Shown in pieces: positions 2,864-33,309 of a stretch of DNA of 64,000 bases (positions are counted from its first letter, which is position 1; the number at the start of each line of letters is the position of its first letter). The notes under the pieces were generated by a model. That model was not told the DNA's origin. It saw only the letters and a program-made list of their open reading frames with translations, and ran no database searches. The translations under genes and the position numbers were made by a program. Source of the DNA: an uncultured virus (IMG/VR IMGVR_UViG_3300020048_000028) (Duplodnaviria > Heunggongvirae > Uroviricota > Caudoviricetes); IMG/VR virus record IMGVR_UViG_3300020048_000028; one strand, written 5' to 3'.

Positions 2864-2882
2864 TTTATTTTTTTTAATTAGT

Positions 2883-4995: not shown

Positions 4996-4998
4996 AGT

Positions 4999-5542: not shown

Positions 5543-5564
5543 TGTATAAATTTTATATTATTAA

Positions 5565-5810: not shown

Positions 5811-5820
5811 AGCTATATAA

Positions 5821-9979: not shown

Positions 9980-10675
9980 ATGAATAAGAAAACAATTTTA
10001 ATCGGTTTAGGAGTTTTAGCCGTTGCAGGTATAGGATACTATATGTGGAAGAAAAAANNNNNNNNNNATGAAACTACTTCAGGTGCTTGCGGATGTTCTG
10101 CTGCTGATGGAGAAGATGAAGAAGAATCTTCAAATGCTACGTCATATACTCAATCAGAATTGAATTGTATGACTAAGAAAATGGACGCAGGTTCTACTAT
10201 GGATGAAGCAAAAACAGCTTGTGTAGCAGTAAGAAAAGTAAAGAGAGATTCGGAACAATCTTCAAATTATTCGGGAAAAAAAAATAACTCAATAAACAGT
10301 AGTAATAATAATAACTTAAGTAGTAATCAGGTTAATATTATAACGCAAATTTTATCAAGTGTTAAACAAATAAAACCTTCAGTATCTAATCTGTCAGATA
10401 AGGCGATTAATTTAAAAAATCTTGACGGAATATTATATAATGCCCAAAATGTAACCAATGAAGTTGCTGCTAAATCAATAATTTCATTTGTATCGAAATT
10501 TAATATGCTTAATGGAAATGGTGCTGATATTTTAGTTTCAAGGCTTAAATTAATAGATGATATATCTATAATTTTGTTAAATTATTTGAAAATGTTAAAT
10601 AAAAATTCTGTTAGTTCTGCTAATGAAGAAAATGATATGGAACAATCTTCAAATTATTGGGGAGATGACGTATAG
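9980..10675 (+). CDS. N-terminal TM protein, paralogue of 9741 (spans an N gap)
   Basis: Identical first 26 aa; N run at 10058-10067 leaves the frame unverified. Confidence 0.55.
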   Translation: MNKKTILIGLGVLAVAGIGYYMWKKKXXXXETTSGACGCSAADGEDEEESSNATSYTQSELNCMTKKMDAGSTMDEAKTACVAVRKVKRDSEQSSNYSGKKNNSINSSNNNNLSSNQVNIITQILSSVKQIKPSVSNLSDKAINLKNLDGILYNAQNVTNEVAAKSIISFVSKFNMLNGNGADILVSRLKLIDDISIILLNYLKMLNKNSVSSANEENDMEQSSNYWGDDV

Positions 10676-13504: not shown

Positions 13505-14572
13505 ATGAAAACAGAATTAGACGTATCAAACATGGATGGCTTAGATGAAAGCTTATTAGATAATTATTCAAATGCGACTGCCCCAAATCCAACCATAGAT
13601 TTAGGTGATGGGTTTAGTCTTGTAGAATTGGGAGATGAGTTTATAACTAAATACAAAGACGCAGGAATAAAACGTGATTATCATAAAGATAGAGCTGACT
13701 CAATGAATCAGGTTTTAAATGATGACCGCCAAAAATGGGGTACTACGATATTAACATGGAGAGGAGAAACTATGACGAGGTCAAGATTGGCAGATTATTA
13801 TAATGCTGAGAATAGTGCTTACAAGCAATGGGCGAATGACTACTTAGTTTTAAAACAAGAAGCAGATAAAAAAGGTTTATATAAAAAATATATTGATGGC
13901 ACATATCAAAAAGGTTTTTTAATTGATGGTTCGGGTAATGTATCTTCAGGAAGGGAAAACCAATCAATCCCTTATCCAAGAGATAAAGGATTTGTAAAGG
14001 CTGATGGTAAAGGTAATTATTATTATTTTGAAGAATTATCTGAATTTATTAAAGGAGAAATAGCAAGACTTACTAAATTAAAGAATGATGCCGAAAAAGC
14101 TGCTGCTGATTTATTATCTGCTCAAAATAAATCTAATGCTGAAAAAGAACAAGCAAAAATAGCTGCCGAAGAAGCAAATAAAAAGTTTCAAAGAGAAAAA
14201 GCTGACGCTGAGGAAAAAGCAAGACAAGCAGAAAATAAAAGATTAGCAGAAGAAAAAGAAAAAGATAGAAAGTTTCAATTACAAAAGTCTGAAACTGAAT
14301 CAAAGGCAAAACAAGCAGAGCTTAAAATTGCTGAACAAAAAAGAAAGCAAGGTGAAACAGAATCTAAAGCTAAATTAAAAGTAGCAGAAAGAGAAGCTGA
14401 AACAAAAATAAGGTTAGCAGAAGATGAATCTAAAACTAAATTAAGAGTAGCAGAAACAGAAGCAAAATCTAAAGAAGTAGAAGCGAAAGCTAAAACAAAA
14501 AAAGCTATGATTATAGGTGGTTCTGTTTTAGCATTAGTTGCAGGATTTCTTATTTGGAAAAAATTTAGTTAA
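13505..14572 (+). CDS. coiled-coil tail-anchored protein
   Basis: N-terminal LDVSNMDGLDES; long E/K/A helix; C-terminal TM. Confidence 0.7.
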   Translation: MKTELDVSNMDGLDESLLDNYSNATAPNPTIDLGDGFSLVELGDEFITKYKDAGIKRDYHKDRADSMNQVLNDDRQKWGTTILTWRGETMTRSRLADYYNAENSAYKQWANDYLVLKQEADKKGLYKKYIDGTYQKGFLIDGSGNVSSGRENQSIPYPRDKGFVKADGKGNYYYFEELSEFIKGEIARLTKLKNDAEKAAADLLSAQNKSNAEKEQAKIAAEEANKKFQREKADAEEKARQAENKRLAEEKEKDRKFQLQKSETESKAKQAELKIAEQKRKQGETESKAKLKVAEREAETKIRLAEDESKTKLRVAETEAKSKEVEAKAKTKKAMIIGGSVLALVAGFLIWKKFS

Positions 14573-15326: not shown

Positions 15327-15875
15327 ATGACACAATTAGCAAATGCAAACTTACTTGACGAAAGCGTAGCAAACAGTAGTTCTTTGAAAACAAAAAGATT
15401 AAATAGAACAGCACAAACTGCTATTAATCCAAATCAAAATCCGATTGCGAATAATCCTATGCCTCAAAATAATCAAAATCAAAATGTAATGCCTAAAGCT
15501 TCAGTCTTAAAAAAGGTAGAAGATTTAGAAGAAGAAGATGATAATGATTACAATGATGATGATTATGAAACGGATAATGAAAGACAAGATAATTATCAAA
15601 GATTTCAAAATGAATTTGTTCCAAATAAAACTGAAAACAAAGAAATTTCTAACGATAAGAAAATATTAGGAATGAAACCTGTTTTATTTTGGGCATTATT
15701 AGGGGTTGGTGCTGCCGTAGGTGCTTATTTTGGATATAAATATATTAAAAAAAGAAAATTAGGAAGTTTAGGAAGTAGTTTATCTTCTAATACAGTACCT
15801 AACAATACAGTTGCCGCAGGGGTAACAGGTGGTGCAGTTGCATCAGTACCTACTACTCCTGAAATAAAAATATAA
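15327..15875 (+). CDS. KILGM-family single-TM protein
   Basis: KKILGMKP followed by TM. Confidence 0.65.
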   Translation: MTQLANANLLDESVANSSSLKTKRLNRTAQTAINPNQNPIANNPMPQNNQNQNVMPKASVLKKVEDLEEEDDNDYNDDDYETDNERQDNYQRFQNEFVPNKTENKEISNDKKILGMKPVLFWALLGVGAAVGAYFGYKYIKKRKLGSLGSSLSSNTVPNNTVAAGVTGGAVASVPTTPEIKI

Positions 15876-15887: not shown

Positions 15888-16454
15888 ATGAATCAAAACT
15901 TTGAATTATCAAACGTAAATGGATTAGATGATAGCATCTGTAACGCAATAGGTATGGATAATAATCAGTATTCTAATATGATAAATGAAAATTTATTAGA
16001 TGGACTAACTGAAAATACAAGCCTTTTAGGTGCTGATGGTGTGGAAGATAGATACTCTAATTATACTCTAACTTCTGCTGATGTTCAAGCAGGAGCAGCT
16101 TTAGTAGGGACTATTGCTCAAGCTGCTGCGTCAAAGCCCGATGCAAGTGGTTGCAAAAAACCATCTATGCAAGAATCTTTTCTTAATAGAGGCAAGTGGT
16201 CAAAATATAAAGATTGTGTTAAGAATGCTAATGATTTAGCAGAGAAAGCTAATGCGGCAGAAAGAGAAAGAACGGAACAGCAAAGATTAAAGGTTGAACA
16301 AGCTAAATTAGCTTTACAACAATTAAATACAAGTAGAGTCAATAGAGAAGCTGACGGTAAAATTTTAGGTATGCCTAAAGGTTTAGCTATTGGTTTAGGT
16401 GTCGCTATTCTTGGAGCTGCTGTTTTTGTAACGTATAAAATAATTAAAAGATAA
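15888..16454 (+). CDS. KILGMPK tail-anchored protein
   Basis: FELSNVNGLDDS; CKKP...Y..C; KILGMPKGLAIGLG. Confidence 0.7.
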   Translation: MNQNFELSNVNGLDDSICNAIGMDNNQYSNMINENLLDGLTENTSLLGADGVEDRYSNYTLTSADVQAGAALVGTIAQAAASKPDASGCKKPSMQESFLNRGKWSKYKDCVKNANDLAEKANAAERERTEQQRLKVEQAKLALQQLNTSRVNREADGKILGMPKGLAIGLGVAILGAAVFVTYKIIKR

Positions 16455-16780: not shown

Positions 16781-16806
16781 TTAAATAATAAATAANNNNN
16801 NNNNNA

Positions 16807-16848: not shown

Positions 16849-17313
16849 ATGCAAAATTTCGATTTATCAAATCAAGAAAACTTAGACGATAACTTTTTAG
16901 GTGCAACTTTAAAAGCAAGAAAAGAAATGAAAGGCTTAACAGGCTGTAAAAAACCTATATTTATGATAGGTAAGAAAAAAAAAGCATACAATGAATGTAT
17001 CGCTAATTATAAAACTGAGGTTATAAAAAGAGCAAAAGAAGCAAAACAATTAAATGAACAATTAGCCGCTTCTTCATCAGCAGCAGCAGCAGCAGCAGAA
17101 AAAGCTAAAAAAGAATTAGAGGAAACTAAGGCAGAATTGGCGGCTTCTAAGGGTGGTTCAGGTTCTTCAAAAAAAGGTTCAGCATCATCTGAAACTGAAG
17201 AAGATGGTAAAATTTTAGGTATGTCTAAAGGTTTAGCTATTGGATTGGGAATTGGAGTTGTCGTACTTGCAGTAGGTGGCTTTGTTGTGTATAAGAAATT
17301 TATCAAAAAATAA
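16849..17313 (+). CDS. KILGM tail-anchored protein
   Basis: FDLSNQENLDD; GCKKP...YNEC shared with 15888; KILGMSKG plus TM. Confidence 0.7.
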   Translation: MQNFDLSNQENLDDNFLGATLKARKEMKGLTGCKKPIFMIGKKKKAYNECIANYKTEVIKRAKEAKQLNEQLAASSSAAAAAAEKAKKELEETKAELAASKGGSGSSKKGSASSETEEDGKILGMSKGLAIGLGIGVVVLAVGGFVVYKKFIKK

Positions 17314-17345: not shown

Positions 17346-18662
17346 ATGAAAAAAGAATTTGACGTATCAAACGCAGAAGGATTAGACGAAAGTATAACCG
17401 AAGATTATAGTAATTTTAATATTAAAGACCCATTAAAAGGAGCAAGAGATGCTGCTAAAAGAATAAGAGATGAAGCTAAACGAGTTCGTGATAGATTAAA
17501 AGAAGCTGCTAAAAAAGTAAAAGAAGAAGCTGAAAGAGTTGCTAAACAGGCACGAGATGCTGCTAAAAAAGCAGGAGATAAAGCTAAAGAAGTTGGCGGA
17601 AAAATTAAAAGCAAAGCTAAAGAAATTGGCGAAAAAGCCAAAGAAAGAGCTAAGAAAATTGCTACTAAAGCAAGAGATGAAGCTAAACGAGTTCGTAATA
17701 GTATAAAAGAAGTTGAAAAGAAAATAGGTAAAGAATTAAAAAGAGTTGCTACTAAGATAAAAGAGGTTGCCAAAAAAATTGGAGATAAGTTTAGAAACGC
17801 ATTTCGTAAAGTAATTCGAGGTTTGATTTTAAAATCTATTAAAGGAAATGTTCATGGTATGGCTGCAAGAATGTATGCAGCTATTGCAACTGAAGATGAA
17901 CTTAAAGCGAGAAAGTTTAAGCCGAAGTTTGCAGGAAATGCTAAAAAAGCTTATTCAACTATTCTATCGGAATGGAAAAAATTAGGTGGTTCTGAAAGTG
18001 AGCTTAACGATGCGATTGTATCAGGACACTCTAAACGAATGTTGAAAAATCCATTTAATAGAGCAGATGGAAATAATCACGATGAGTTTTATAGCTATAT
18101 TGCTTCTGAAGATTATTATCATGGAGCTGATGGCGATGCTACCGATGAAGAAAAGGAAATTGCAATCGCTGATGCTGAAAAAATGAAAGCTGATGAAGAA
18201 GCTGCTGTTGTTATAAATGAAGATGCAGCTACGGTAGAAGCTCCTGAAGCAGAAGAAAAACAGTCGGGCTTTAAAGCTTTTATTGCTAAAATCCTTTCTT
18301 TATTCAAAAAGCATAAAGCAGATGAAGCTCCTTATGAGGAAGGTACTCCCGAAGCTACTGATTTAGCAACTGATGAAAAGGCAGATGCAGGAAATAGACC
18401 TCCTGAAGGTGGAGATAGTTCAGTTCTTGATGAGTTAGATAAACACGCTGAGTCAGATGCTAATTCTGCTCCTAAGAATGAAGATGATGAAGATGATGAT
18501 GATGACGAGCCTGTAAGCAAAGACGGTAGTGGTAAAAAAACAACTGAAGATGGCGATGGTAAAATTTTAGGTATGCCTAAAGGAGTAGCTATTGGATTAG
18601 GTGTCGCTTTAGTTGCAGTAGTCGGTATAGTAGCTTTTAAATACTTTAAAGGAAAAAAATAA
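17346..18662 (+). CDS. KILGMPK tail-anchored protein with K/A-rich amphipathic repeats
   Basis: FDVSNAEGLDES; basic repeat region; WxKLGG domain shared with 24214; acidic linker; TM. Confidence 0.7.
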   Translation: MKKEFDVSNAEGLDESITEDYSNFNIKDPLKGARDAAKRIRDEAKRVRDRLKEAAKKVKEEAERVAKQARDAAKKAGDKAKEVGGKIKSKAKEIGEKAKERAKKIATKARDEAKRVRNSIKEVEKKIGKELKRVATKIKEVAKKIGDKFRNAFRKVIRGLILKSIKGNVHGMAARMYAAIATEDELKARKFKPKFAGNAKKAYSTILSEWKKLGGSESELNDAIVSGHSKRMLKNPFNRADGNNHDEFYSYIASEDYYHGADGDATDEEKEIAIADAEKMKADEEAAVVINEDAATVEAPEAEEKQSGFKAFIAKILSLFKKHKADEAPYEEGTPEATDLATDEKADAGNRPPEGGDSSVLDELDKHAESDANSAPKNEDDEDDDDDEPVSKDGSGKKTTEDGDGKILGMPKGVAIGLGVALVAVVGIVAFKYFKGKK

Positions 18663-18763
18663 TTAATCAAATTAACAATAATAAGTTAATATATTAATGA
18701 AAATACATGGATTCAGTTCATGTATTTTCCTATTTAAAAACTAAATTTAAAAAAAATAAAAAC

Positions 18764-21700
18764 ATGGGATTATTTGATAATAAAGAGAACTACAACACAG
18801 GTCGCTCTTGGCATTTAGACAGACAAAAACATAATAAATCTGAAGATTGGGAAAAACCAATGGATGAGCGTAAGCAGGATTATGCTGATGGTGGTGGGGT
18901 TTTTCCAAAATTATCATCTGATAAAATTAAATTCTATAAACTTGCTGATATTTCAGATTTAGATTTAGAATATGATGGCGATGAAACAGATTTAAGGCTT
19001 CATGGAAGTGAGATGTTAAATTGGGGAGCTGAAACTGAAGCTGAATATAAAGAAGCTACTGATGCTATTGATGCTATAAGCTTCAAAGGTAATGGTTGGG
19101 AAGTTTATGCTTGGTATGATGTAAGTGGCTTTAATTATTGGATGGTTCAACAAGAAGAACAAAATTATATCAACGTAACTATTATGTTTGCTGTTGATTC
19201 TATTGATGCAAGTGAGATTCCTGCAATTAAAAATGCAATGGAATCAGCTTATAGCGAAGCATATTCGATTTCGGAAAAATATGACTATGTTCCAAATTCT
19301 GAATACAAACGAGGTGGTAAAGTAGATGGTCGTAGCACTCGTGCTAAAAATACTTGGAATAGTGGTGCTTCTTGGACAAGAGATAGAAATGCTCATAACA
19401 AATCTGAAGATTGGGAAAAGCCAATGAATAAACGCAAATACGATGAGGGTGGTGGAGTTGACACATATTATAGAGTATTTGATAATCAAAGAGGTATTTA
19501 TTTTGCAACGGGATACAATGCAACTTCTATGAATGAATTGATTGAAGATTTTCAGTCTTATATTTTAGGAGCAAACGAAATAGATTTTGAACATGAACAA
19601 GGAACTGCTGAATACGAACAAGAATTAAATAATTTTTTAGGAACTTGGGATTTGATTTCTGAACATTTACAAGGTGTTGAATTAGAAGAAAGTTCTACTC
19701 CTTTTGAAGATGAATATGAATTTAAAGGAGGTGGACGAATTAAATCTGCTTTAATGCGTGATAGAGCTTATAAATCTAATGAGCCACATGAGCAAGCTTA
19801 CAAAAGAAAAAGTCGTCCAAAAAATCCTCGTTACGCAAAATACGCTGAAGGCGGTGGAGTTGATGAATTTTCAATAAGTAATCCAAAAGATTTAAACGAA
19901 TTTTGGTCTAATGATGAAAATGCAGATACACAAATATTTTTTGTTGAAGAAATGGATAATGAGGATGATAACGATACTTATTATGTCGTTGGTAATCAAA
20001 CAAAAAAATACTACGAAGATAATAAATATTGGGATTATGATTATAGTTTCAAAGATATTAACGATGCTATTAAACAAGCAAAAGAAGATGCTGAAAAACA
20101 TGGTGGTGTTTATGTGAATAACGTTAAACTTGAATACGCTGAAGGTGGCTCAGTAAAAAGCCGTTATAATACAGGTCGTTCTTGGCATTCTGACAGAAGG
20201 CAACATAATAAATCTGAAGATTGGGAAAAGCCTTTAAGTGAAAGAGCATCGGCTAATCGTTCAGCATCTAAAGGTTCAGCAGCTAAAAGTAAATCTCCAA
20301 AAGGTAAATCAAAAAATTATATGTATATCCCTAATTATATGATTAGAGGTGCTGAAGTTAATAATAGTGGTAAGACTACTGATATTGATGGAGGAAATAT
20401 TCTTGATGGTATATATGTTAAGAAAGGAACTAAATACGCTAAAGGTGGTGGAGTTGGAGCAAAAAAATCAAAAAAACAAAAAGCCATTGACCTATTGGTA
20501 AAAAACATAAAATATAGTTTTGTGAATACAGATATGGGTAGCGGTTGGAAATTTGTATTATACGCACCATTCAGTACAAGTGGATATGGAAAAGACGTAT
20601 TAGAAGAAATGAAGTATCTTGATATGTTTGATGCAGATGATATGGGCATAGAAGATTATGATAATTTATCAAAAAAAGATAAGGATTATTATTATAATGA
20701 TTGGAAAAATCAGTTATTTGATACTTATTTTGAAGTTTTTAAAGATAAAGTAACGCCTAAATACTTACACTTTTTTGAAGAAGAATTACAAAAAGATGAA
20801 TTTGGCAATGGAGGAAACGTAGGTCGTGATTTGCTTTTTAAATCAAAACAAAAGTGGGAACAAAATTACGATAGAAAGCGTGAATGGAAAGAATACAAAA
20901 AAGAAGGTTGGTTCGCTAATTGGTTTAAAGATGGCGGTAACGTAGGTCGTGATTTGCTTTTTAAATCAAAACAAAAATGGGAACAAGATTACGATAGAAA
21001 GCGTGAATGGAAAGAATACAAAAAAGAAGGTTGGTTAGCTAATTGGTTTAAAGATGGTGGAGAAGCTAAAGATTTTGACTTTGACGGATTTAGAAAACGA
21101 CAAGCTATCATCTCCGAAGCGGTTAAATTTGCTTTTGTAAGAGCCATAGGTTTTGATGACGCTTATAATTTACTACAAAATGAAGATTTATCTATTAGTC
21201 CTTATCGTTTAGTTGAAAGAGCTGTTAGTGGAGAGTTTATTGGAGTACATGAAATTAATAAAGATGTTATTGAAAGTGCAATAGATGAAGCAAGACGAGT
21301 AACAGGAAGATATAAAGATTCAGGACAAGGTATTGGTAGTAGTGATATGACTGCATTTTTGAAGAATTTTCTTGATAGTGCAGGTTTTAAAACAGCATTT
21401 ATTTCTTCTCGTTTAGAAAGGATAGATGAAAACGGTAACGCAATTAAAGTGAAAAGCGATTTGCCTAATACTACAATGTTTAAATATGGTGGTGGTATAA
21501 AGTCATTATTTAATAAAGCAAAAGAATTAACCAATAAGGGAGTTGATGCAACAAAAAAAGCAATACATGATAAAAAGAAAGAAATTGCTCTTAATGTACT
21601 TTATGATATGAAGGAAAACATTGCACGAGGCAAAGAAGAAATAATCGCAACTGATAGAGCATTTAGAATAGTAGACGAAAAATACGCCAAAGGAGGTAGA

Positions 21701-21976
21701 GTTAAAAACTACAAATACGTTCCTAATCACATGATTGAATCAGTTGATGTAGAGCGTAATGGTAAAACTACTGAAATTGATGGAGGAAATATTCTTGATG
21801 GTCTTTATGTTAAGAATGTTAAGTTTGAAGAAGGTGGATACATCGAAAGAATACCTACTGAAACTCTTGAAGGAATGGTTGGTAGAAAACTAAACGGATG
21901 GAATGATGATGTAGTTATTTATAATGGAGTAGCTTACAAAAAATGTTTCATGCAGCCTTATTATAAAATAGCCTAA
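18764..21976 (+). CDS. modular polyprotein-like protein with 13 [YF]xxGG linkers and KCF C-terminal domain
   Basis: Start likely ATG 18764 after an A-rich leader; repeated NKSEDWEKP and KSKQKWEQ modules. Confidence 0.7.
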   Translation: MGLFDNKENYNTGRSWHLDRQKHNKSEDWEKPMDERKQDYADGGGVFPKLSSDKIKFYKLADISDLDLEYDGDETDLRLHGSEMLNWGAETEAEYKEATDAIDAISFKGNGWEVYAWYDVSGFNYWMVQQEEQNYINVTIMFAVDSIDASEIPAIKNAMESAYSEAYSISEKYDYVPNSEYKRGGKVDGRSTRAKNTWNSGASWTRDRNAHNKSEDWEKPMNKRKYDEGGGVDTYYRVFDNQRGIYFATGYNATSMNELIEDFQSYILGANEIDFEHEQGTAEYEQELNNFLGTWDLISEHLQGVELEESSTPFEDEYEFKGGGRIKSALMRDRAYKSNEPHEQAYKRKSRPKNPRYAKYAEGGGVDEFSISNPKDLNEFWSNDENADTQIFFVEEMDNEDDNDTYYVVGNQTKKYYEDNKYWDYDYSFKDINDAIKQAKEDAEKHGGVYVNNVKLEYAEGGSVKSRYNTGRSWHSDRRQHNKSEDWEKPLSERASANRSASKGSAAKSKSPKGKSKNYMYIPNYMIRGAEVNNSGKTTDIDGGNILDGIYVKKGTKYAKGGGVGAKKSKKQKAIDLLVKNIKYSFVNTDMGSGWKFVLYAPFSTSGYGKDVLEEMKYLDMFDADDMGIEDYDNLSKKDKDYYYNDWKNQLFDTYFEVFKDKVTPKYLHFFEEELQKDEFGNGGNVGRDLLFKSKQKWEQNYDRKREWKEYKKEGWFANWFKDGGNVGRDLLFKSKQKWEQDYDRKREWKEYKKEGWLANWFKDGGEAKDFDFDGFRKRQAIISEAVKFAFVRAIGFDDAYNLLQNEDLSISPYRLVERAVSGEFIGVHEINKDVIESAIDEARRVTGRYKDSGQGIGSSDMTAFLKNFLDSAGFKTAFISSRLERIDENGNAIKVKSDLPNTTMFKYGGGIKSLFNKAKELTNKGVDATKKAIHDKKKEIALNVLYDMKENIARGKEEIIATDRAFRIVDEKYAKGGRVKNYKYVPNHMIESVDVERNGKTTEIDGGNILDGLYVKNVKFEEGGYIERIPTETLEGMVGRKLNGWNDDVVIYNGVAYKKCFMQPYYKIA

Positions 21977-22338
21977 TGAAATTTCAAGTAGTTGATATAG
22001 AAGAAAACAATTATATTGTTGTAGAATATAAGTCAGGGGTAATCCCTGACTTATGTATATCTATGAAAGTTTTATTTTCTTTTGATACTGTTGAAGTTCC
22101 TTTAGATTATGGTTATGGAGAATATGAAACTCATACATCAAAACAAATAGGTGTTTATATAGCAAATGAATTTGATTTAATATGTATTGCCGATAATGAT
22201 GATAATGAATTAGTTTTAGAAGAATCGCAAAATATTTTAGTACATCAAGAATCCGTAGAATATTTTAAAAATCACTTTGAGGGGTATAATTATAACGAAT
22301 TAAGTCGTAACATTAATCTTAACAGTAAGATTAATTAG
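21976..22338 (+). CDS. acidic hypothetical protein
   Basis: Translationally coupled (TAATG). Confidence 0.55.
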   Translation: MKFQVVDIEENNYIVVEYKSGVIPDLCISMKVLFSFDTVEVPLDYGYGEYETHTSKQIGVYIANEFDLICIADNDDNELVLEESQNILVHQESVEYFKNHFEGYNYNELSRNINLNSKIN

Positions 22339-22383
22339 TGAAATACATTAAAAAATATTATAAATAATTTAAAAAATAATAAA

Positions 22384-24171
22384 ATGAGCAACGAAACTAA
22401 TTTAGACTTTGATAATAAAATGGCATTAATTAATTGCGATAGAATATATGAATATGCTATTAAGATTGATGCTATTGTTACTGAAGATACTCAACTTGAA
22501 GATTGGATAAAAATGAAATTAACTATCGTAGAGCAAAACATTGCTGATGTTAAACATTCTCTTTCGGGTTGGGCTAAATTTGAATCAGGAGGAATTATAT
22601 TTAAAAAAGAATTATTGCATATTGCAAAATACGCTAAGGACTTAATTGAAATGATTAAAGGAGGTTCTCAACTTATGAGTTGGCAAGAAAATAAATTAGC
22701 TATTTCTGCTGAAAATATTGATAGCATTTATCATCATTTAGATTATAAAATGGGAAACAGAGCATCTGACTTAAATAAAGATGATGTTGAAGAAATAACC
22801 ATTAATAATTCTATTGAGTATAAGAAAGGTGGTGGAGTTAAAGAAAGAGTTTATCTTAAACAGCCATTATTTATTGAAAAAGATGCTGATGGTTTTTATT
22901 CATTTGATTTTGATTACGGAAGAACAACAGGTTGGGCTTTTGATACTGATGATATTGGAGTTGCTATCTGTATAATGTTAGGTAGTGAATATGCTACTAA
23001 TGAAGAAATTAGAGCTTTAGAGATTAATCCCCGTCAATTAAGAAATGCTGATAGAAAGGATATGTTGTATTGGTTAAGCGGAGGAAATAGAGCTTGGCAA
23101 TATGATTCTGAATATACTGAAAATTTTGATACTATCTATGATGCTATTTGGAAAGATGAGGCTTTAAGAATGAAAAAAGCTATTGTTGAATTTAAAACAA
23201 TAGGTGAAGTAATGGATTTTCTAAATCAAAAATATAAGGAAGATGCTTATTTTTTATACGATGCTCAAGATAAGGGTTATTACCGTAATGAGGAGCAAGA
23301 AGAAATGGATAGAGAGCAAGAAGAAATGGATAGAGCAGATGAGGAATATCGTAAAAATGATGAGTATATAGAATCTTATGCTAAAGAACATTACGTTAAT
23401 AAAGACACTTCTGAAGTAATTTCTGAATTAGTTTCTTATTTTGAAGAAAATGATATTGATTATGATTATGATAGAGTAAAACAACTTGTTTATGGTTATT
23501 ACAAAGAAATGGGTGATAAAACGCTAAATGTGTTTGGAAAAAGAAAATACGCTTTAGGCGGTATTGCTCCTAAAGTTTCAAATAGTGAAGCTCGTAGCAA
23601 GGTAGATTCAAGAACTCCATTTAGAGGAAGTAATGTGGCAGGTGGTTTTATTGGAGATGTTTATCTTGTTGAATCATACGGATATTATCCTTTATTTGTT
23701 TATAAAGATGGAGTGTGGTATGAGAATATGAATAAATTCTCTGCATCTACTGCAAAACAAATGAGTCAAGTAAGACCTAATGCTGAAACTGTATTATCTT
23801 CTTTAAATGAATTAGAGGCTATGTATTCTAAATATGGCAATGGCGGTAACGTAGGTCGTGATTTGATTTTTAAATCAAAACAAAAGTGGGAACAAAATTA
23901 CGACAGAAAGCGTGAATGGAAAGAATACAAAAAAGAAGGTTGGTTCGCTAATTGGTTTAAAGATGGTGGAGAGGCTAAAGAAAATACCTATGCCAATGGT
24001 GGTAATATAGATTCACAAGAAGAAATGCTTAAAAATAATCTTGTTGATGGAGAAATAAGTGCAGATACCTTAAAACGAATTGTAGGCTGTGAACTTTCTT
24101 ATCCTTATCAAATTGTAGGTGCTATTAAACTTCAAAAATGTTTCTTACGTCCTTATTATAAATTAGACTAA
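22384..24171 (+). CDS. modular polyprotein-like protein with 6 [YF]xxGG linkers and KCF C-terminal domain
   Basis: FESGG, YKKGG, YALGG, YGNGG, FKDGG, YANGG; ends KCFLRPYYKLD. Confidence 0.7.
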   Translation: MSNETNLDFDNKMALINCDRIYEYAIKIDAIVTEDTQLEDWIKMKLTIVEQNIADVKHSLSGWAKFESGGIIFKKELLHIAKYAKDLIEMIKGGSQLMSWQENKLAISAENIDSIYHHLDYKMGNRASDLNKDDVEEITINNSIEYKKGGGVKERVYLKQPLFIEKDADGFYSFDFDYGRTTGWAFDTDDIGVAICIMLGSEYATNEEIRALEINPRQLRNADRKDMLYWLSGGNRAWQYDSEYTENFDTIYDAIWKDEALRMKKAIVEFKTIGEVMDFLNQKYKEDAYFLYDAQDKGYYRNEEQEEMDREQEEMDRADEEYRKNDEYIESYAKEHYVNKDTSEVISELVSYFEENDIDYDYDRVKQLVYGYYKEMGDKTLNVFGKRKYALGGIAPKVSNSEARSKVDSRTPFRGSNVAGGFIGDVYLVESYGYYPLFVYKDGVWYENMNKFSASTAKQMSQVRPNAETVLSSLNELEAMYSKYGNGGNVGRDLIFKSKQKWEQNYDRKREWKEYKKEGWFANWFKDGGEAKENTYANGGNIDSQEEMLKNNLVDGEISADTLKRIVGCELSYPYQIVGAIKLQKCFLRPYYKLD

Positions 24172-24213
24172 GTTATTATTCACATAAAATAAAAAATATT
24201 AAAAATAGAAATT

Positions 24214-25455
24214 ATGCAAAAAAACTTAGATGATTTATCAAATGCTCAAGGCTTAGATGAAAGTATAACTGAAAATTATACCAATAATGTAAGAGATGAT
24301 TATTACGGTAATATTAATTGGAAAGGCGATGAGTACAGTAATATTGATTGGAAAGACCCATTTAAAGGACTTAGAAAAACTGTTAAAGCCGCAGGTAAAA
24401 GCATTAAAGATGCAGGTAGAGATGCAGGTAAAAATATTGAAAGAACAACTAAAGAGATTGGTAAGAATATTAAAACTACCACTAAAGAGATTGGTCAAAA
24501 TATAGAGAGAACGACCAAAGAAATTATTAAAAATAAAAATTTAAAAAAGGCTTTAAGTGCTGTATTTTTAAAATACAATCCTGCTGTTGCTATACCAAGA
24601 AGTTCTGCATTATTAGCTTTTAGGGTAAATTTATTTGGTATTTCATCTCGTTTATATCCTGCTTTTTTAGATGAGGAGTCTTTGAAAAAAGGAAACTTTG
24701 ATTTAGCAAATGCAGCGAAAGCAAAAGAGGCTTGGGAAGATGTTGCTAATTTTTGGGAAGATAAATTAGGTGGAGATAGAAATAAATTACGAGAGGCTAT
24801 AAGCGGTGCTTGGAATAAGCCAATTTTTAAAACTAAGAAATCTCAGGCAAGAAGAAGAAGTACAGGTTATCTTGGTTTTTATGGTACAAATGAGTATATT
24901 ACTATGGCAGAAGAAAATTTCTCAGGATGTGACGGGAGTTTTGATGGCATAGATTTAGATAGCATAAATAAAGAAACTTTATTTGGAGATGTTAGCGTTT
25001 TTTATGAAGATGAAAAATATTCTAATTTTGACCCTTGGAGTGATGTTGCTATTGGTATTTATATCAGTTTGGGTTTAAGTGTTATTGGATATATAGCAGG
25101 TGCGATAGGGAAAAAAGGAGCAAGTAAAAATCCTTATAACGATGGAAGTCCTCAAGCTCAAGGTTTTAATACTCAATTACAAGGAGCAGGTACTATACCT
25201 CCTGCTTCTGAAGCTGAATTAGATAAAATAATAGCGGCTGCTAAAGAGGATAGAGAAAAGGGATTAGGTTTAGATAGTACAGGTCTTGACTTAAGACAAT
25301 TAAATGATGATGAAGTAGTAGTTAATAAAGATGGAACTATCAGTAGAAAAAGCGGTAAGATTTTAGGCATACCTAAAACTGCTTTTTGGATTGGAGTGAG
25401 TGTATTGGGAATATTAGCAGGAATTATAATATATAAAAAGTTTATTAAAAAATAA
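24214..25455 (+). CDS. KILG tail-anchored protein, paralogue of 17346
   Basis: DLSNAQGLDES; KDPFKG; WEDKLGG; YITMAEENFSGCDG shared with the putative MCP. Confidence 0.7.
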   Translation: MQKNLDDLSNAQGLDESITENYTNNVRDDYYGNINWKGDEYSNIDWKDPFKGLRKTVKAAGKSIKDAGRDAGKNIERTTKEIGKNIKTTTKEIGQNIERTTKEIIKNKNLKKALSAVFLKYNPAVAIPRSSALLAFRVNLFGISSRLYPAFLDEESLKKGNFDLANAAKAKEAWEDVANFWEDKLGGDRNKLREAISGAWNKPIFKTKKSQARRRSTGYLGFYGTNEYITMAEENFSGCDGSFDGIDLDSINKETLFGDVSVFYEDEKYSNFDPWSDVAIGIYISLGLSVIGYIAGAIGKKGASKNPYNDGSPQAQGFNTQLQGAGTIPPASEAELDKIIAAAKEDREKGLGLDSTGLDLRQLNDDEVVVNKDGTISRKSGKILGIPKTAFWIGVSVLGILAGIIIYKKFIKK

Positions 25456-25459
25456 AAAT

Positions 25460-26143
25460 ATGCAAAATTTAGATTTATTAAACAGAGATAAAATTGAAGA
25501 AACTTTTGGTATCAATGGATATTATGGTGATGGACAAATGATGAATTGGTTTGCTCCTCCTTCTGCTATTAAAAATGTTAGAGGTGTTGATTATGAATCT
25601 ACTCCTTATGGTGTTCCTACTGATGAGTTTGAATGGGTTAAGAGAAATAGATATAACAGAGAAAGAATAGCAAATAATCTTCAAAACACTACTAATATTT
25701 ATCCTTCCGCTTTGCCAAGTGGAGATAGATTAGAAGATTATTTTAATGTTGACGCAGGTGTAGGTAGAGGAGGCGAAGCAGCGGCAGGAGGAGGCTTAGT
25801 TGTTGTTGAAAACATTATTAATAATGAATCTAAGGGTATAAGTACAGGTGGTATTTTTAACGATGTTAAAGCGGTAGCGGTTCAGTCAGCAAAGGCAGAT
25901 TCAATTAAAGTACGCACAGCAAAAGCAGCAGAAACTAAAGCAGAAGCTAAAGCAGAAAATAAATCATCAGATTCTAAAAAAACAGATTCAACTAAAAAAA
26001 CAGACTCAACTAAAAAAGATGCCGATGCCGTAGAAACATCTGATAAAATTTTAGGTATGCCTAAAATGGTTGCTATCGGTTTAGGCGTTGTTATACTTGC
26101 TATCGGTGGCTTTGTAGTTTATAAAAAATTTATTAAAAAATAA
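25460..26143 (+). CDS. KILGMPK tail-anchored protein
   Basis: C-terminal DKILGMPKMVAIGLG...KKFIKK. Confidence 0.7.
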   Translation: MQNLDLLNRDKIEETFGINGYYGDGQMMNWFAPPSAIKNVRGVDYESTPYGVPTDEFEWVKRNRYNRERIANNLQNTTNIYPSALPSGDRLEDYFNVDAGVGRGGEAAAGGGLVVVENIINNESKGISTGGIFNDVKAVAVQSAKADSIKVRTAKAAETKAEAKAENKSSDSKKTDSTKKTDSTKKDADAVETSDKILGMPKMVAIGLGVVILAIGGFVVYKKFIKK

Positions 26144-26146
26144 AAT

Positions 26147-26980
26147 ATGACATTTTCAATTCCTTCAAATGGATTACCGTTCAGCCTTATGGTTGGTATT
26201 AAAACTAATAAGCCTGAAACTATTTGCATAGAGGCTAAAGATGCCTATAAGCCTGATTCTATTTATATAGGTAGAAATGGATTGATTAAAGACGGTTATC
26301 GTGTTTTTGAGTTGAAATTTCCTCAAAGTCCTAAGCTTATGCAAATTTCAATCTTTAATAAATCTAAAGGTAATTATCCAAGTAATGAAGATAAGTCTTT
26401 TGAAATTGTAAAATTTGAACCTAATGAATTAAAAAGCTGTCCTCTTTGGGCTGATAAAGATATTCACAACTTCGTTAAATTTGCACAAGATTTTTGTGGA
26501 AATTCAAGTGTGATTTCGGCAGGAGATTACAAGCCAAGTATTTATCGTTCTGATTGTGGAAAATTCTGCATTGATTATTATAAAAAAATAAGAAATAGAA
26601 AAACAGGTCAATATGTAAGTACCCCTGCAAGAATTGGTCATAGTACAGGTATTATAGAAATATCAAAAAGTGATTTTGATAAATATACTATTCCTATGCG
26701 TATGGCTATTTTGTTGCATGAATTTTCTCATAAATACATGAACCCTAAAATTGGTAGAGAGATTTCTGACGAAGTATCCGCAGACGTTAATGCTCTGAAC
26801 ATATATTTATCTTTAGGTTATCCTCATATCGAAGCTCAATACGCTTTCTTAAAAGTATTTAAAGGTGCTAACAATGAATTTAATAAAAAAAGATATTTAA
26901 TTTTAGATGATTTTATTAAGAAATTTGTTGGAGGCGAACTTGAAAATCGTTGTTTGAATACGCAGCTTCAAAAATCTTAA
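26147..26980 (+). CDS. zincin-type metalloprotease (HExxH)
   Basis: AILLHEFSH followed by ExxAD (DEVSAD), M48/M78-like arrangement. Confidence 0.7.
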   Translation: MTFSIPSNGLPFSLMVGIKTNKPETICIEAKDAYKPDSIYIGRNGLIKDGYRVFELKFPQSPKLMQISIFNKSKGNYPSNEDKSFEIVKFEPNELKSCPLWADKDIHNFVKFAQDFCGNSSVISAGDYKPSIYRSDCGKFCIDYYKKIRNRKTGQYVSTPARIGHSTGIIEISKSDFDKYTIPMRMAILLHEFSHKYMNPKIGREISDEVSADVNALNIYLSLGYPHIEAQYAFLKVFKGANNEFNKKRYLILDDFIKKFVGGELENRCLNTQLQKS

Positions 26981-26989
26981 TTTAATTTT

Positions 26990-27682
26990 GTGAAAAAAAA
27001 AGATGTCGATAAGTTATACGGCTTAGATGGTGGTTGGGATGAGTTGTTACTCACAGCTTATAATCAAACATCTTCTGACGTTTTTTTTAATTTCTTTGAC
27101 CCTCTTATTGTTCAACAAGTGGAAGTTCCAACAACTCCATCTTCGGGTTTTTACATAAGCAGTAGCAATAGTAGTGATAATTATAATCAAGCTGTAAGGG
27201 ATTTTCTTTATAACCCATGTTGGACAAGAAGGATATATGTTTATTCAAAAACTGAACAAAACTTAAATCAAGTAATTAATCATATCTACAAAGATGCCAA
27301 TGGTATCGAATGTCAGATTCCAAGATTTCCAAGTTTATCGGTTGGTATAAATCAGTTTCAGGGTTGGATTGGTGAACTTGATTTCCCGAATAAGGAAACT
27401 GTATTTGGAATAAATCAATGGTTTAAAAATGTTTTAATAAAAGCTAATAGTGAAATAGGCTTTCTTTTGATTTACAAACAAATTGATAAAAGTAATATGT
27501 TATCGGTATCGAATAATTGTGATTATTGTCCTGCTGAATTAAGAAAATGGAATGAAGATGATTTGTTGCTTAACGATTATTCTTTAGTTTCTGAATTTAA
27601 GCAGAATATGTATGAAGGTGAAACTCAACCTGCCGTCAGACCTTTTGATTTTTCGATATTAAAAGAATGGCAAGGAAAATAG
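26990..27682 (+). CDS. paralogue of the putative capsid protein (minor capsid?)
   Basis: YNQ...NP...NQVI..YKDANG.ECQIP...NQFQ; GTG start. Confidence 0.6.
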   Translation: MKKKDVDKLYGLDGGWDELLLTAYNQTSSDVFFNFFDPLIVQQVEVPTTPSSGFYISSSNSSDNYNQAVRDFLYNPCWTRRIYVYSKTEQNLNQVINHIYKDANGIECQIPRFPSLSVGINQFQGWIGELDFPNKETVFGINQWFKNVLIKANSEIGFLLIYKQIDKSNMLSVSNNCDYCPAELRKWNEDDLLLNDYSLVSEFKQNMYEGETQPAVRPFDFSILKEWQGK

Positions 27683-27780
27683 TATTTATTAACCTAAAAT
27701 GTGTTTAAAACTATATCAGTATAATAAAATTAACATCAAGATAAATTATATATTTAAAACAAAATTTAAAACTTAAAAAC

Positions 27781-27930
27781 ATGGCAAAAACAGTTAAATC
27801 CGCAAACAAGGATAGAATGACAATGATTCAAGGCGAAGCTAAGAAAATTTGGGCAGAAGGTAAATGCAAAAAATATTCGGATGCGGTGAAACAGGCTTGT
27901 GTGTCGCTGAAGAAGCAAGGTAAGATGTAA
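27781..27930 (+). CDS. 49-aa basic helical protein (not in ORF track), possible DNA-condensing protein
   Basis: MAKTVKSANKDRMTMIQGEAKKIWAEGKCKKYSDAVKQACVSLKKQGKM; A-rich leader. Confidence 0.65.
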   Translation: MAKTVKSANKDRMTMIQGEAKKIWAEGKCKKYSDAVKQACVSLKKQGKM

Positions 27931-28114
27931 TTTTTCATAAAATAAATTGGCGATGAGTTCCATCCTTTCAGCCTTTGGATATGAAAGTTCAACTGTTAAC
28001 GCAGCTCAGTTTGTCGATGAATTAGGAATAAAACATCAAATGTTAAGGTTTGTATAAGTTTTTAAGAACGGTAAGAGTGCAAATGAAAAAAATGAAAATT
28101 AAATTATAAAACGA

Positions 28115-29671
28115 ATGGATAAACATTGGGACAACGAATATAGAGATGGTGGCTCAATTAGCAGCGACAGAACATTCACAGAATGGGATTTCAATAAGTT
28201 AATGGCTTCTGATAAATTTCGTGCTGTATGGAGTGGAAACCTTTGGGAAATAATAGAGGAAGGTAGAACAACTGTTTTAGGTAAATTCAATCCTAAAACA
28301 AAATCATTATATATTTCAGGAGATAAAAACATGGACAACTTCTTAGTTGTTTGGATGACTGAAAACGGATTCGTTAATTCTGAGGAATATGCTATTTTAG
28401 CAAATGGAGGTGGAGTTGGCAATGATTGGTTTTGGAATCATGCTTATAGACATTACATGAGAGATGCTTCTTTAGAACAAAGAAATAAAGTTAAAGAACA
28501 ATTTATCAAAGAGGGTTTAGAATTAGATGGCGAAAGTCCAAGACACGCTTATATTGTAGTAAGTATAGTAAGTCCTGAAGAATTAAAATATTTTTCTAAA
28601 GTTGGCGATAATGCTATTCGTTTTGATGACGGTGGTGGAGTTGAAAGAATTGATTTGTTTGAAGATTACGAAAACATACCTGAAAGAGTACAAGTAGTTT
28701 TAGATACATATCAAGATGCTTTTGAAAATGGAGATTATAAACAATTAGCCATAGCTAATAGAACATTAGAAAGAATAGGTTATACTTTTGATTATGGTTT
28801 AGATGGACAAGCATACGGTTTAAGACCAATAGGAGTTCCTTTAAATGAATTGAAAGGATACGAAGATATGGGAGAAAATTACGCTAATGGTGGTGGAGTT
28901 GGTTCTTATCCTTACGAGCTAACTATTTTGGTTAGCAATAAGGATTATGCGAAAATTATAATACAAAGGTATAATGGTATTATATTAGAAGAATCTTCAA
29001 AAGATAACGGATATGAATTTGCTTTAGGAAGTTATGATTGGAGAGTATTAGATAAAATAGCCGATGAATTACATGATAAAGGCTTTTTTATTTCTCAATA
29101 TGCCAATGGCGGTGCAATAAAAACTGATTTCAACGAATTAGAAAATACTGAACTTAGAAATGTATTAATTTCCTTTTGGAATGATTTTTTTAATAATCCT
29201 ATCTGTAATTATTTATCAATACAAAAAGAGAATTATATATTATCAAACATTGATAATGTATTTGTTATTGTTAGAGATGAAGATAAAGGCATTTTTAGTG
29301 ATATTGAAAAACAAAATATTGATATGTTTTTAAGTCCTTACTTTGACTCAGATAAAAAACCTTTGTTTACTGAATTTTTTAATAAATATAAAATAAAGGA
29401 TAATAAAATAATAATCTATATTAAGGAAGGAAATATGTACGCTAATGGTGGTGGAGTTGAAATAGCAGATGATTACGCTGATTTAAGATTTGCCTCTAAA
29501 CAGTTTTCTAAAACGGCAGAAATGTTAGTAAGAGAAAATTTTAATAATGGAGAAATCTGTATGTGTAAACTTACTAAGATACTTGGACATGAACCTAATT
29601 ATCCTATTCAGATTGTTGGTTCTTTAAAACTTGAAAAATGTTTTATGAAAAGATTTTACAAATTAGCATAA
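28115..29671 (+). CDS. modular polyprotein-like protein with 6 xxxGG linkers and KCF C-terminal domain
   Basis: YRDGG, LANGG, FDDGG, YANGG x3; ends KCFMKRFYKLA. Confidence 0.7.
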   Translation: MDKHWDNEYRDGGSISSDRTFTEWDFNKLMASDKFRAVWSGNLWEIIEEGRTTVLGKFNPKTKSLYISGDKNMDNFLVVWMTENGFVNSEEYAILANGGGVGNDWFWNHAYRHYMRDASLEQRNKVKEQFIKEGLELDGESPRHAYIVVSIVSPEELKYFSKVGDNAIRFDDGGGVERIDLFEDYENIPERVQVVLDTYQDAFENGDYKQLAIANRTLERIGYTFDYGLDGQAYGLRPIGVPLNELKGYEDMGENYANGGGVGSYPYELTILVSNKDYAKIIIQRYNGIILEESSKDNGYEFALGSYDWRVLDKIADELHDKGFFISQYANGGAIKTDFNELENTELRNVLISFWNDFFNNPICNYLSIQKENYILSNIDNVFVIVRDEDKGIFSDIEKQNIDMFLSPYFDSDKKPLFTEFFNKYKIKDNKIIIYIKEGNMYANGGGVEIADDYADLRFASKQFSKTAEMLVRENFNNGEICMCKLTKILGHEPNYPIQIVGSLKLEKCFMKRFYKLA

Positions 29672-29696
29672 CAAAAAAAATATAAATAAATGTATC

Positions 29697-30149
29697 ATGG
29701 CGATTAAGAAGTTAAAAAAAGCAGAAAAGCCTACTGTAAAAGATAAGGATGAAAAAGCTAAACCGACAGGTTATCGTTTTAAGACTAAGGATAATCCTAA
29801 GTTAGAAAAAAAAGACGGAACTTTGAATAAAAAAGGTAAAGAGCTTTATTATGCACGACCAACTAAAAAAGAAGTTGAGGAGTATAAAAGAAATCCTGAT
29901 GGTTCTTATGACGATGATGTAAAACAAATATATCACGAAACAAGAGCTGACCGTAAACACTCTGACGATAACTTGAAAAAGAAGTTTGAAGAAGGTGGAG
30001 ATACTGTTTTACCTTTTATAGTAGAAAAGAGTATGGAAGATATGAGAGTAGCATTAGGTCGTGAGCCAAATTATCCTTACGATTTTATTAATGGCGAAAA
30101 GTATGTAAAATGTTTTTTACGTCCTTATTACGCTTTAAAAGATAAATAA
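29697..30149 (+). CDS. basic protein with FEEGG linker and KCF C-terminal domain
   Basis: Ends LGREPNYPY...KCFLRPYYALK. Confidence 0.7.
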   Translation: MAIKKLKKAEKPTVKDKDEKAKPTGYRFKTKDNPKLEKKDGTLNKKGKELYYARPTKKEVEEYKRNPDGSYDDDVKQIYHETRADRKHSDDNLKKKFEEGGDTVLPFIVEKSMEDMRVALGREPNYPYDFINGEKYVKCFLRPYYALKDK

Positions 30150-30174
30150 AAATAATACATAATAAATAAATAAA

Positions 30175-30537
30175 ATGGATAGTAATACAAAAGGTATAAT
30201 AACAGTAGGAGTTGCTTTAGGAGTAGTAGGCTTGGCTTATTACTTTTTAGTGCATAATAGAACTCAGGAATCAGGTTCAGATAGCATTAATTTTAATTCT
30301 CTTTTAAGTAATACGGGATTAAAGCCTAATCAGAGTGGTATATTAATAATTCCGTTTAATGATTCTAAAAACTCTGCTCAGTTTTATAATAATAATCGTA
30401 TTTTCATTTTTGATGCTGATAAAAATGTTGTAGCAAAAGGAACATATTCAGATGGTGGTAAATCTATAAAATTAGATTCAGGTAGCGAGATAGCAAGTGG
30501 AAGTGTATTTAGTAACTTATTACAAATAGTAAAATAA
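30175..30537 (+). CDS. N-terminal TM protein with small beta domain
   Basis: TM at aa 7-26. Confidence 0.65.
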   Translation: MDSNTKGIITVGVALGVVGLAYYFLVHNRTQESGSDSINFNSLLSNTGLKPNQSGILIIPFNDSKNSAQFYNNNRIFIFDADKNVVAKGTYSDGGKSIKLDSGSEIASGSVFSNLLQIVK

Positions 30538-30538
30538 T

Positions 30539-31066
30539 ATGGAAGCAAAAGTCAATCAATATTACGAATCGCTTCCCTCGTGGGCAAAAGGCACACTTGC
30601 AGTTGCAGTTATTGCAGGTGTTGGAATACTTGGGTTCGTTATTTACAGAAAAATAAAATTAATTCAAGAAAAAGCAGTAAGTAATGAAACAGCTAATTCG
30701 GCAGAAGATGAATATTTAAAATTAAAGAAAAAGGGGCAAACATTATCGTTCCCTCAAACTAATTATTTTTCTGCTGCATCTGCAATTCAAAATGCTTTAA
30801 ATGGTTGCGACACTTATGTAGGAGAAGAAGATGCGGTTTATACTGTTTTAAATATTGTAAAAAAACCTATTGATTGGTATTACTTGGTTAATATATTTGG
30901 TTCAAGAAAAATTGATGATTGTGTATATGGCAGCACAATGTATGCTTTGCCTGAATTATTGATGCAGCAACTTGGAAGTGTGAATACGTCTACCTCAATA
31001 TATACAAAATCTAATATAACAGTTTTAAGAGCAGGATTGAAGAAAATAGGAGTAGAACTTGGTTAA
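30539..31066 (+). CDS. N-terminal TM protein with annexin-repeat-like segment
   Basis: AxxIxNALNGxxT...EDAVxxVL resembles the annexin AxxLxxAMxGxGTDExxI motif. Confidence 0.45.
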   Translation: MEAKVNQYYESLPSWAKGTLAVAVIAGVGILGFVIYRKIKLIQEKAVSNETANSAEDEYLKLKKKGQTLSFPQTNYFSAASAIQNALNGCDTYVGEEDAVYTVLNIVKKPIDWYYLVNIFGSRKIDDCVYGSTMYALPELLMQQLGSVNTSTSIYTKSNITVLRAGLKKIGVELG

Positions 31067-32757: not shown

Positions 32758-33309
32758 ATGAAAAAATATTCTTTCAATAAAGATGCTGAATTAATTCCAT
32801 TATCACCAATAGGTTTTAATTTTTGTTATAGTCCTGTTAATTTCGCTAAAGGCGATGTTATAAATGGAACTAAAAGAGGAACGGTTGTTTTCTTTTCTAA
32901 GAATAATAAAAGTTTTGCTATTGATGATAGTTTGGGAATATTATTTAATATGCAGCAAGAGATTAAATCTAACGCTATTGGTCGTGGCGGTATTGCTATG
33001 GGTGGCGGTATGCGTGGTGGTGCTATAATGCGTGGCGGTGGTTTTCCTATGGGTGGTGGTGCTATAATTCGTGGTGGAGGTGCAGGCTTTCCTGTTCGTG
33101 GAGGAGGTTTCCCTTTGGGTTTAGCTCGTAGAGGATTTCCATCTCATAGACGAGGGTATTACAGAAATGGTAGGTTCTATGTTCCTCAAGGATTCTCTGT
33201 TTATAATGCTTTAAATGGTATGTGTTATTACCTTGACGAAAATGGATTCCCTGTGTATTTTCCATGTAATAATTGGATTTACGATTTAGATGTTGCTAAT
33301 TTACCTTAA
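32758..33309 (+). CDS. RGG/Gly-rich protein
   Basis: SNAIG followed by MRGG/RGGG repeats and an aromatic/Cys C-terminus. Confidence 0.6.
   Translation: MKKYSFNKDAELIPLSPIGFNFCYSPVNFAKGDVINGTKRGTVVFFSKNNKSFAIDDSLGILFNMQQEIKSNAIGRGGIAMGGGMRGGAIMRGGGFPMGGGAIIRGGGAGFPVRGGGFPLGLARRGFPSHRRGYYRNGRFYVPQGFSVYNALNGMCYYLDENGFPVYFPCNNWIYDLDVANLP

Follow-up and report, generated by a model that had tools for sequence, protein, structure and literature searches.

A conserved C-terminal module on multi-module proteins of an uncultured phage lineage, a possible virion-incorporation tag

Encapsulin cargo-loading peptides are short, linear C-terminal sequences that sit behind a flexible glycine-containing tether on varied cargo and bind an HK97-fold shell. 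Structural or core chains of African swine fever virus (ASFV; pp220/pp62, protease pS273R) and of adenovirus (protease adenain) carry Gly-Gly at the borders of their modules. Here, we compare with these and with phage systems a stretch of 64,000 nt from an uncultured member of the Caudoviricetes (IMG/VR record IMGVR_UViG_3300020048_000028), hereafter referred to as the window, in which four proteins end in a homologous module of about 40 residues. We call this module the tail, the proteins bearing it carriers, and the glycine-containing motif that links the modules of a carrier the joint. Among phages, the signal of DarB of phage P1 lies in the N-terminal 30 residues and the Dar proteins share no consensus (PMC9024508), while the capsid targeting sequence (CTS) of T4 IPIII is taken off by the prohead protease and can load foreign proteins (PMC9026906). 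Passages of Iyer et al. 2017 (PMC5512222) further describe polyvalent proteins of phages and conjugative elements, which are thought to be packaged and injected. The window is part of a 153-kb genome from a lineage with genomes of about 150 kb; it is AT-rich (GC 27–37%), and from ~7.3 kb to ~63 kb its genes lie nearly all on the + strand.

Four proteins of the window share a C-terminal module

Alignment of the four ends (A1) revealed an invariant G, K-C-F and Y. Among all six-frame open reading frames (ORFs) of at least 50 residues, 'KCF' is confined to these four proteins, where it lies 10–12 residues before the stop codon. As a control, we took 54 metagenomic homologues of P0004, built a profile from their 45 distinct ends without including any window sequence, and searched it against the 1023 stop-to-stop frames of the window. 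This profile matched exactly the four ends (E 7e-26 to 1.2e-8), with the next best match at E 0.1. Since a profile built from outside homologues matches only these ends, their homology is real and the window contains exactly four copies. A preliminary description of this DNA had claimed such a common module at the end of four proteins, always behind the final GG linker, and both statements agree with our data, the tail being the segment behind the last [YF]xxGG joint in each of the four proteins. All four ORFs lie on the + strand; the starts given there hold for 22384, 28115 and 29697, while 18764 is an internal Met of the ORF at 18707–21976. Coordinates are collected in Table 1.

Table 1. Carriers, tails and further features of the window.
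Feature	Coordinates	Strand	Basis or remark
P0001, 1089 aa, 14 modules, 13 [YFWLIM]xxGG joints	18707..21976	+	ORF; alternative start 18764
P0001 tail, aa 1045-1089, subtype with W-x-D-D-V insertion	21839..21973	+	profile E 1.2e-8
P0002, 595 aa, module chain, 8 joints	22384..24171	+	ORF
P0002 last module, aa 541-595	24004..24168	+	profile-matched tail ~24052-24165, E 1.5e-11
P0003, 518 aa, module chain, 6 joints	28115..29671	+	ORF
P0003 last module, aa 447-518	29453..29668	+	profile-matched tail ~29552-29665, E 2.7e-9
P0004, 150 aa, minimal form: one basic cargo module, one joint and tail	29697..30149	+	ORF
P0004 last module, aa 102-150	30000..30146	+	profile E 7e-26; AlphaFold2 tail fold aa 110-147
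Stand-alone protein, N-terminal jelly-roll and C-terminal HExxH...E zincin domain	26147..26980	+	sequence conservation, AlphaFold2
Two small proteins, 120 and 175 aa, N-terminal membrane anchor	30175..31066	+	comparison of four genomes
Anchor-family ORFs	11129-12433, 13505-14572, 15327-15875, 15888-16454, 16849-17313, 17346-18662, 24214-25455, 25460-26143		

The tail proved to be widespread. Searches with P0004 yielded 56 proteins at E ≤ 1e-3 among 89 candidates; the end is kept in 54 of 55 homologues (P0035 diverges ahead of it), and P0058 has ~20 further residues after the tail. Three IMG/VR records (L001–L003) contain ten carriers, three to four per record in one cluster each, with all copies C-terminal. 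At further metagenome loci 21 of 22 copies are terminal, the exception being L004 with 24 residues after the tail. We then used an alignment of 14 ends (A3) for a profile search against 1.84 billion representatives, which returned 292 cluster representatives at E ≤ 1e-3, 116 of them at E ≤ 1e-10. Statistics on position, joints and alignment columns were derived from 145 newly listed proteins together with the four of the window, that is 149 proteins with 150 copies. The tail ends at most eight residues from the C-terminus in 148 of these copies, so that the strictly terminal position expected in the preliminary description turned out to be near-strict. In the two non-terminal copies a joint and further modules come after the tail: P0199 continues for another 89 residues, and P0177 possesses one internal and one terminal copy.

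Conservation is concentrated on few columns of the tail. Across the 150 copies, K33 and [FY]35 are present in 100%, Y40 in 99%, G16 in 98%, K/R41 in 89% and R/K37 in 88%. The Cys described as invariant is so within the window; across the family, Cys34 is found in 82% of the copies, with V in 10% and otherwise A, Q or S, and it is replaced in three of the ten copies of L001–L003. Essential Cys chemistry, be it a disulfide, lipidation or catalysis, is ruled out by its replacement in 18% of the copies. Since the residue is not invariant across the family, no Cys-based chemistry is needed and it is probably a core position rather than a reactive residue.

To gain insight into the fold of the tail, an AlphaFold2 model of P0004 was built with 33 sequences. 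Residues 110–147 were modelled as a strand, a helix and three strands at a predicted local distance difference test score (pLDDT) of 92–94. The cargo module reached 81–90 and the joint ahead of the tail ~56, which, next to the confidently modelled tail, suggests that the joint is a flexible tether. The predicted template modelling score of 0.45 is consistent with two independent domains. No relative of the tail was found in the PDB by Foldseek at E ≤ 0.001, in Pfam or in PHROGs, and an Atlas feature search on residues 105–150 of P0004 gave no usable match. Comparison with 48,161 chains by VIA-align reached a best Z of 2.8, the top matches being B3 domains at an insignificant Z of 2.3–2.8. As far as so small a domain allows, this is in line with the preliminary description, which had expected no match to a known catalytic or DNA-binding family. 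According to the model, the tail is thus a mini-domain that folds autonomously, and it represents a new family without recognisable relatives; the novelty of its predicted fold is not proven, because the domain is so small that weak matches are expected. In the literature searched, with subscription journals and supplements outside the search, no description of this tail or of the joint was found.

Joints, cargo modules and a co-encoded zincin

The joint consensus K-[YF]-A-x-G-G-(G)-[VI] was derived from the context of 1278 GG positions in 68,000 carrier residues. The four carriers of the window contain [YFW]xxGG 26 times (1.11 per 100 residues) and its 78 other ORFs together contain it 13 times (0.073 per 100 residues), which makes the density 15-fold higher in the carriers, and 1000 shuffles of the four proteins contained it 1.9 times on average and seven times at most. 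A GG lies upstream of the tail in 141 of the 149 carriers, which bears out the co-occurrence with GG linkers foreseen in the preliminary description; the other eight measure 48–190 residues. From joint to joint, different codons are used for Y, A and G. Because the codons vary, the joint appears to be selected as a peptide and not as DNA, and a role as a DNA-level recombination sequence is ruled out.

When the 149 carriers were cut in silico at their joints, 812 modules with a median length of 73 residues were obtained, which form 285 clusters, including 193 singletons. Carriers possess a median of five modules and a maximum of 21. Relatives of P0004 have acquired entire modules between their joints, e.g. 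a copy of a basic motif that is present three times in P0001, and the carriers of the window align with those of related genomes over 45–220 residues only, whereas the products of neighbouring genes align over their full length. Known domains are rare in this cargo: only 10 of the 117 carriers of at least 150 residues have a Pfam match at E ≤ 1e-4, and 107 lack any known domain. The matches comprise LPD11 with DUF7659, DUF7659 alone, GNAT, ART-PolyVal, RadC-JAB, topoisomerase IB, DUF6926, KOW, DUF7028 and Kyano_Gp96; RadC and DUF7659 were found in L001 and L003 too. As to the window, P0001 has no Pfam or PHROG match, residues 163–237 of P0003 match phrog_37263 (function unknown), and the cargo module of P0004 is very rich in lysine. 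Short basic, aromatic modules recur between joints (e.g. P0001 residues 704–785 and P0002 residues 489–529). One unit of 41 residues has three copies in the window and 42 copies in 31 carriers, and a motif of 22 residues occurs three times in P0001 (residues 30–52, 216–238 and 488–510).

The best conserved gene of the carrier block lies between the carriers and codes for a putative zincin, 66–75% identical in L001–L003 and with relatives in 831 clusters at E ≤ 1e-5. Across 45 sequences, residues H191, E192, H195, E209, D213 and E229 do not vary. Its AlphaFold2 model (mean pLDDT 89.6) combines a helical C-terminal domain with an N-terminal jelly-roll that resembles carbohydrate-binding modules (Z up to 8.2). 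VIA-align matched residues 122–263 to the M48 zinc protease BepA (Z 7.5, root-mean-square deviation 4.9, 120 residues aligned) and the C-terminal domain to 3c37, a putative Zn peptidase (Z 6.1). By sequence, the protein has no PDB match at E ≤ 10 and no Pfam family, the best being DUF4932 with four of 45 members at E 0.0099. The HExxH motif and the downstream Glu lie on a modelled zincin fold, as in M48-like gluzincins. The protein represents a new, widespread family of putative phage metallopeptidases. It is encoded less than 10 kb from tail carriers in all seven genomes with enough context (the window, L001–L003, L014, L017 and L018; L019 is apparently the same sequence as L018, so the two were counted once) and is most plausibly the candidate enzyme for cutting at the joints.

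Known systems and possible roles of the tail

Compared with the systems introduced above, the carriers most resemble polyvalent proteins. In both, many unrelated small domains are united in one phage polypeptide, 2 to at least 15 in polyvalent proteins and 14 in P0001, and ART-PolyVal, LPD11, RadC-JAB and GNAT, domains that take their name from that class or are known from it, occur in relatives of the window's carriers. Processing by a zincin is likewise proposed in passages of PMC5512222; there it is an MPTase domain inside the polyprotein, whereas here it is a separate gene product without a Pfam match. The words 'glycine' and 'linker' each occur 0 times in the text of PMC5512222, and its passages on polyvalent proteins, supplements excluded, mention no common C-terminal module. 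A further difference is the large share of carriers without any known domain (107/117). Since the class domains occur in relatives and not in the four proteins of the window, polyvalent membership of the latter, as judged from sequence, is only partly shown.

With the capsid targeting of T4 and P1 the carriers may share, by analogy, a terminal signal on diverse cargo. Those signals are N-terminal peptides of 10–30 residues, whereas the tail is not a short N-terminal peptide but a C-terminal, folded domain of ~40 residues, conserved and profile-searchable across 292 clusters. With encapsulin cargo the tail has in common its C-terminal position (148/150) behind a flexible joint (pLDDT ~56). It differs in being a folded strand–helix–three-strand domain and not a short motif, and no HK97-type capsid gene was recognised in the fragmentary records scanned. 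In contrast to the Gly-Gly-X sites of ASFV and adenovirus, the joint has an extended consensus of its own, in which GG is followed by V/I and an aromatic residue stands three positions ahead of it, and the candidate enzyme is a metalloprotease and not a member of clan CE; families of this clan (C5, C48, C57, C63) had no match in 66 ORFs of the window (E ≤ 0.01) or in 70 ORFs of the related genome G003 (E ≤ 1e-4). We regard the domain family, the joint motif and the zincin family as new, arranged in a logic that has precedents.

Since the tail is near-terminal, joint-linked, attached to diverse cargo and encoded in a block with genes for membrane and fibre-like proteins, the pattern fits an incorporation tag. 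We assign a probability of roughly 0.4 to the reading that the tail is a C-terminal virion-incorporation tag and that the joints are cut sites of the zincin. The single tail of each polypeptide would act in cis before the chain is cut and would dock the whole chain in the assembling particle, at a site common to all carriers. Cuts at the K-[YF]-A-x-G-G-(G)-[VI] joints, most plausibly made by the co-encoded HExxH zincin, would follow and would free many small proteins that are delivered together with the DNA. In this reading, the tail is the hallmark of a class of mosaic phage proteins that are built like beads on a string and belong to the polyvalent-protein kind. Support comes from the universality of the tail while the cargo turns over and from carrier domains typical of injected proteins (ART-PolyVal, RadC-JAB, LPD11, GNAT and topoisomerase IB). 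Such an address tag is the simplest account because the tail is single, terminal, found on varying cargo, conserved, flexibly tethered and linked to the zincin. The preliminary description had also proposed a packaging or sorting tag, and the position, joints and diverse cargo expected from it were found, while the invariant Cys was not. We regard as rather doubtful a bolder version, in which the tail is a universal docking module by which strings of effectors are loaded and then cut by the zincin in a non-canonical, possibly membrane-containing particle of a widespread uncultured lineage of ~150-kb genomes, whose virion genes would be dominated by tail-anchored membrane proteins.

Several points weigh against an incorporation tag. 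Because P0199 and P0177 each have a tail with a joint and more modules behind it, the C-terminus need not be free in every case. We infer docking and its partner, cleavage of the joints, presence in the virion and delivery into the host. The fold match of the zincin to BepA at Z 7.5 is middling on the tool's own scale, and to our knowledge no Gly-Gly specificity is known for M48-type zincins. Pfam recognised no effector domain in the window's own four proteins, and known phage capsid-targeting signals are short N-terminal peptides and not C-terminal folded domains. Neither Megablast of positions 18000–31000 nor tblastn of P0002 and of P0004 (the latter at E ≤ 1) matched any of 50,697 phage records, and no cultured relative was found among them. 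Lastly, capsid and packaging genes of this lineage went unrecognised in the fragmentary records scanned.

These features can be accounted for in other ways. The tail could be a handle that recruits the zincin, for instance via its jelly-roll, for cutting of the joints, with docking to the particle achieved by something else or not at all. The tight linkage of the zincin and its rank as the best conserved gene of the block would suit such a handle, as would its extra N-terminal jelly-roll, which is of a ligand-binding kind, and the presence of one tail per polypeptide, i.e. one handle per substrate. However, this role would presuppose contact between tail and zincin, and an exosite handle need not be at the extreme C-terminus; we consider this role unlikely. 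The extreme position of the tail would likewise not be needed for an action after delivery, in which it would, as a small basic and aromatic module, bind host DNA or RNA or a membrane, or oligomerise, and thereby localise an uncut chain: a localisation module need not be terminal in 148 of 150 copies. While basic or aromatic side chains make up the conserved residues of surface type (K33 100%, Y40 99%, R/K37 88%, K/R41 89%) and the lysine-rich cargo module of P0004 would fit such an activity, the tail matches no nucleic-acid-binding family in Pfam and no such fold beyond the insignificant B3 hits of VIA-align (Z 2.3–2.8), and cutting at the joints would leave no bead but the last one localised. 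We regard this role as quite improbable.

The carriers might also be passengers of a phage tail lumen or tail tip, the C-terminal module anchoring them in the hub as the last ~30 residues of the lambda tape measure gpH anchor it in gpI and the joints corresponding to the cut region of gpH. Lambda gpH indeed resembles the carriers in that it contains a short [FY]-A-x-G-G-x-V motif and that its extreme C-terminus is functional: F-A-T-G-G and Y-A-T-G-G-Y-V flank a segment of 45 residues near the cut region, and according to passages of PMC12617516 residues 818–849 bind gpI and a glycine-rich region is cleaved. At the profile level, no homology of joints or modules to gpH (~residues 727–793) was found: a profile of the window's recurrent module of 47 residues did not match gpH at a cut-off as loose as E ≤ 100, and when gpH was compared with the 149 carriers by phmmer the best E was 0.41. 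Moreover, genes for a tube, sheath, tape measure or hub went unrecognised in the fragmentary records, a 'tape measure' PHROG match at 17346–18662 lies on a K/A-rich helix of a membrane-anchored protein, and three or four different proteins would have to compete for very few hub sites. Of all the roles considered, we deem this passenger role very unlikely.

Genomic setting of the carriers and what the tail may mean

The carrier genes form a co-oriented block that also codes for membrane proteins, transglycosylases and fibre-like proteins. In all four genomes compared, the last tail-bearing gene is directly followed by the genes of the two small anchored proteins (30175–31066 in the window; Table 1), the first of them a homologue of 30175–30537, and these proteins are candidate docking partners. 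At least eight ORFs share a C-terminal anchor composed of G-K-I-L-G-M-P-K, ~20 hydrophobic residues and Y-K-K-F-I-K-K; most of them open with a common D-L-S-N-x-x-G-L-D-E-S, and acidic runs precede the anchor. From their sequences these ORFs appear to be paralogues that code for membrane proteins, which may belong to a virion membrane. One of them, 17346–18662, was rejected as a tape measure protein because its weak PHROG matches (E 2e-7 at best) fall on a helix rich in K, A and E and the protein has a membrane anchor at its end.

Using Pfam and PHROGs, we searched for virion genes in 66 ORFs of the window, in 70 + 61 ORFs of G003 (97 kb) and in 64 ORFs of G002 (102 kb). Lysis, fibre-like and replication genes were recognised, whereas genes for a terminase, a portal, an HK97-type capsid, a tail tube, a sheath, a tape measure or a hub were recognised in none of the three; a search for Terminase_6N in G001–G003 likewise found none. 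As the scanned records are fragments, non-recognition of these genes does not establish their absence. Relatives of the zincin carry the automatic label 'Uroviricota'. In tblastn searches against phages, 39258–41909 and a G003 gene returned only widely shared domains from diverse tailed phages, which say nothing on the type of particle. Among species-representative genomes, a profile search with alignment A2 had L004 as its sole match, a 6-kb contig of a metagenome-assembled genome of Bacteroidia, which is a weak hint at Bacteroidia as the host.

The weakly paralogous, beta-rich proteins at 7325–8134 and 26990–27682 may be vertex, spike or capsid-anchoring domains; in relatives, the type at 26990–27682 is fused (L003 4624–6348, L002 6119–7756) to a beta-propeller like those at 57247–58956 and 58964–60853. 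A stand-alone ART-PolyVal ADP-ribosyltransferase (1315–1818, E 3.7e-12) adjoins a cluster of glycosyltransferase, sulfotransferase and APS-kinase genes (1818–6525). The ORFs 12434–13465 and 32758–33309 contain M-G-G-G-G or R-G-G repeats and proline-rich stretches, and these glycine runs are of low complexity and not related to the joints. The adjacent ORFs 9741–9956 and 9980–10675 are identical in their first 26 residues, which are signal- or anchor-like. Runs of ten N bases are present at 10058–10067, inside the latter ORF, and at 16796–16805. Many GIY-YIG/NUMOD3 homing endonuclease genes are scattered across the lineage (55598–56368, L001 6760–7725 and several in G002 and G003).

Tail, joint and zincin suggest a simple logic of three parts: tag, cut site and protease. 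If the tail indeed serves for incorporation, proteins delivered by phages would for the first time have a conserved address label that profiles can search for. Hundreds of proteins that otherwise defy annotation (285 module clusters) could then be listed as a likely injected arsenal, which would provide a catalogue for the discovery of new anti-defence functions, and the tail might be reusable to load foreign proteins, as the signals of T4 and P1 are. The finding also flags a widespread phage lineage, with the zincin family alone accounting for 831 clusters.

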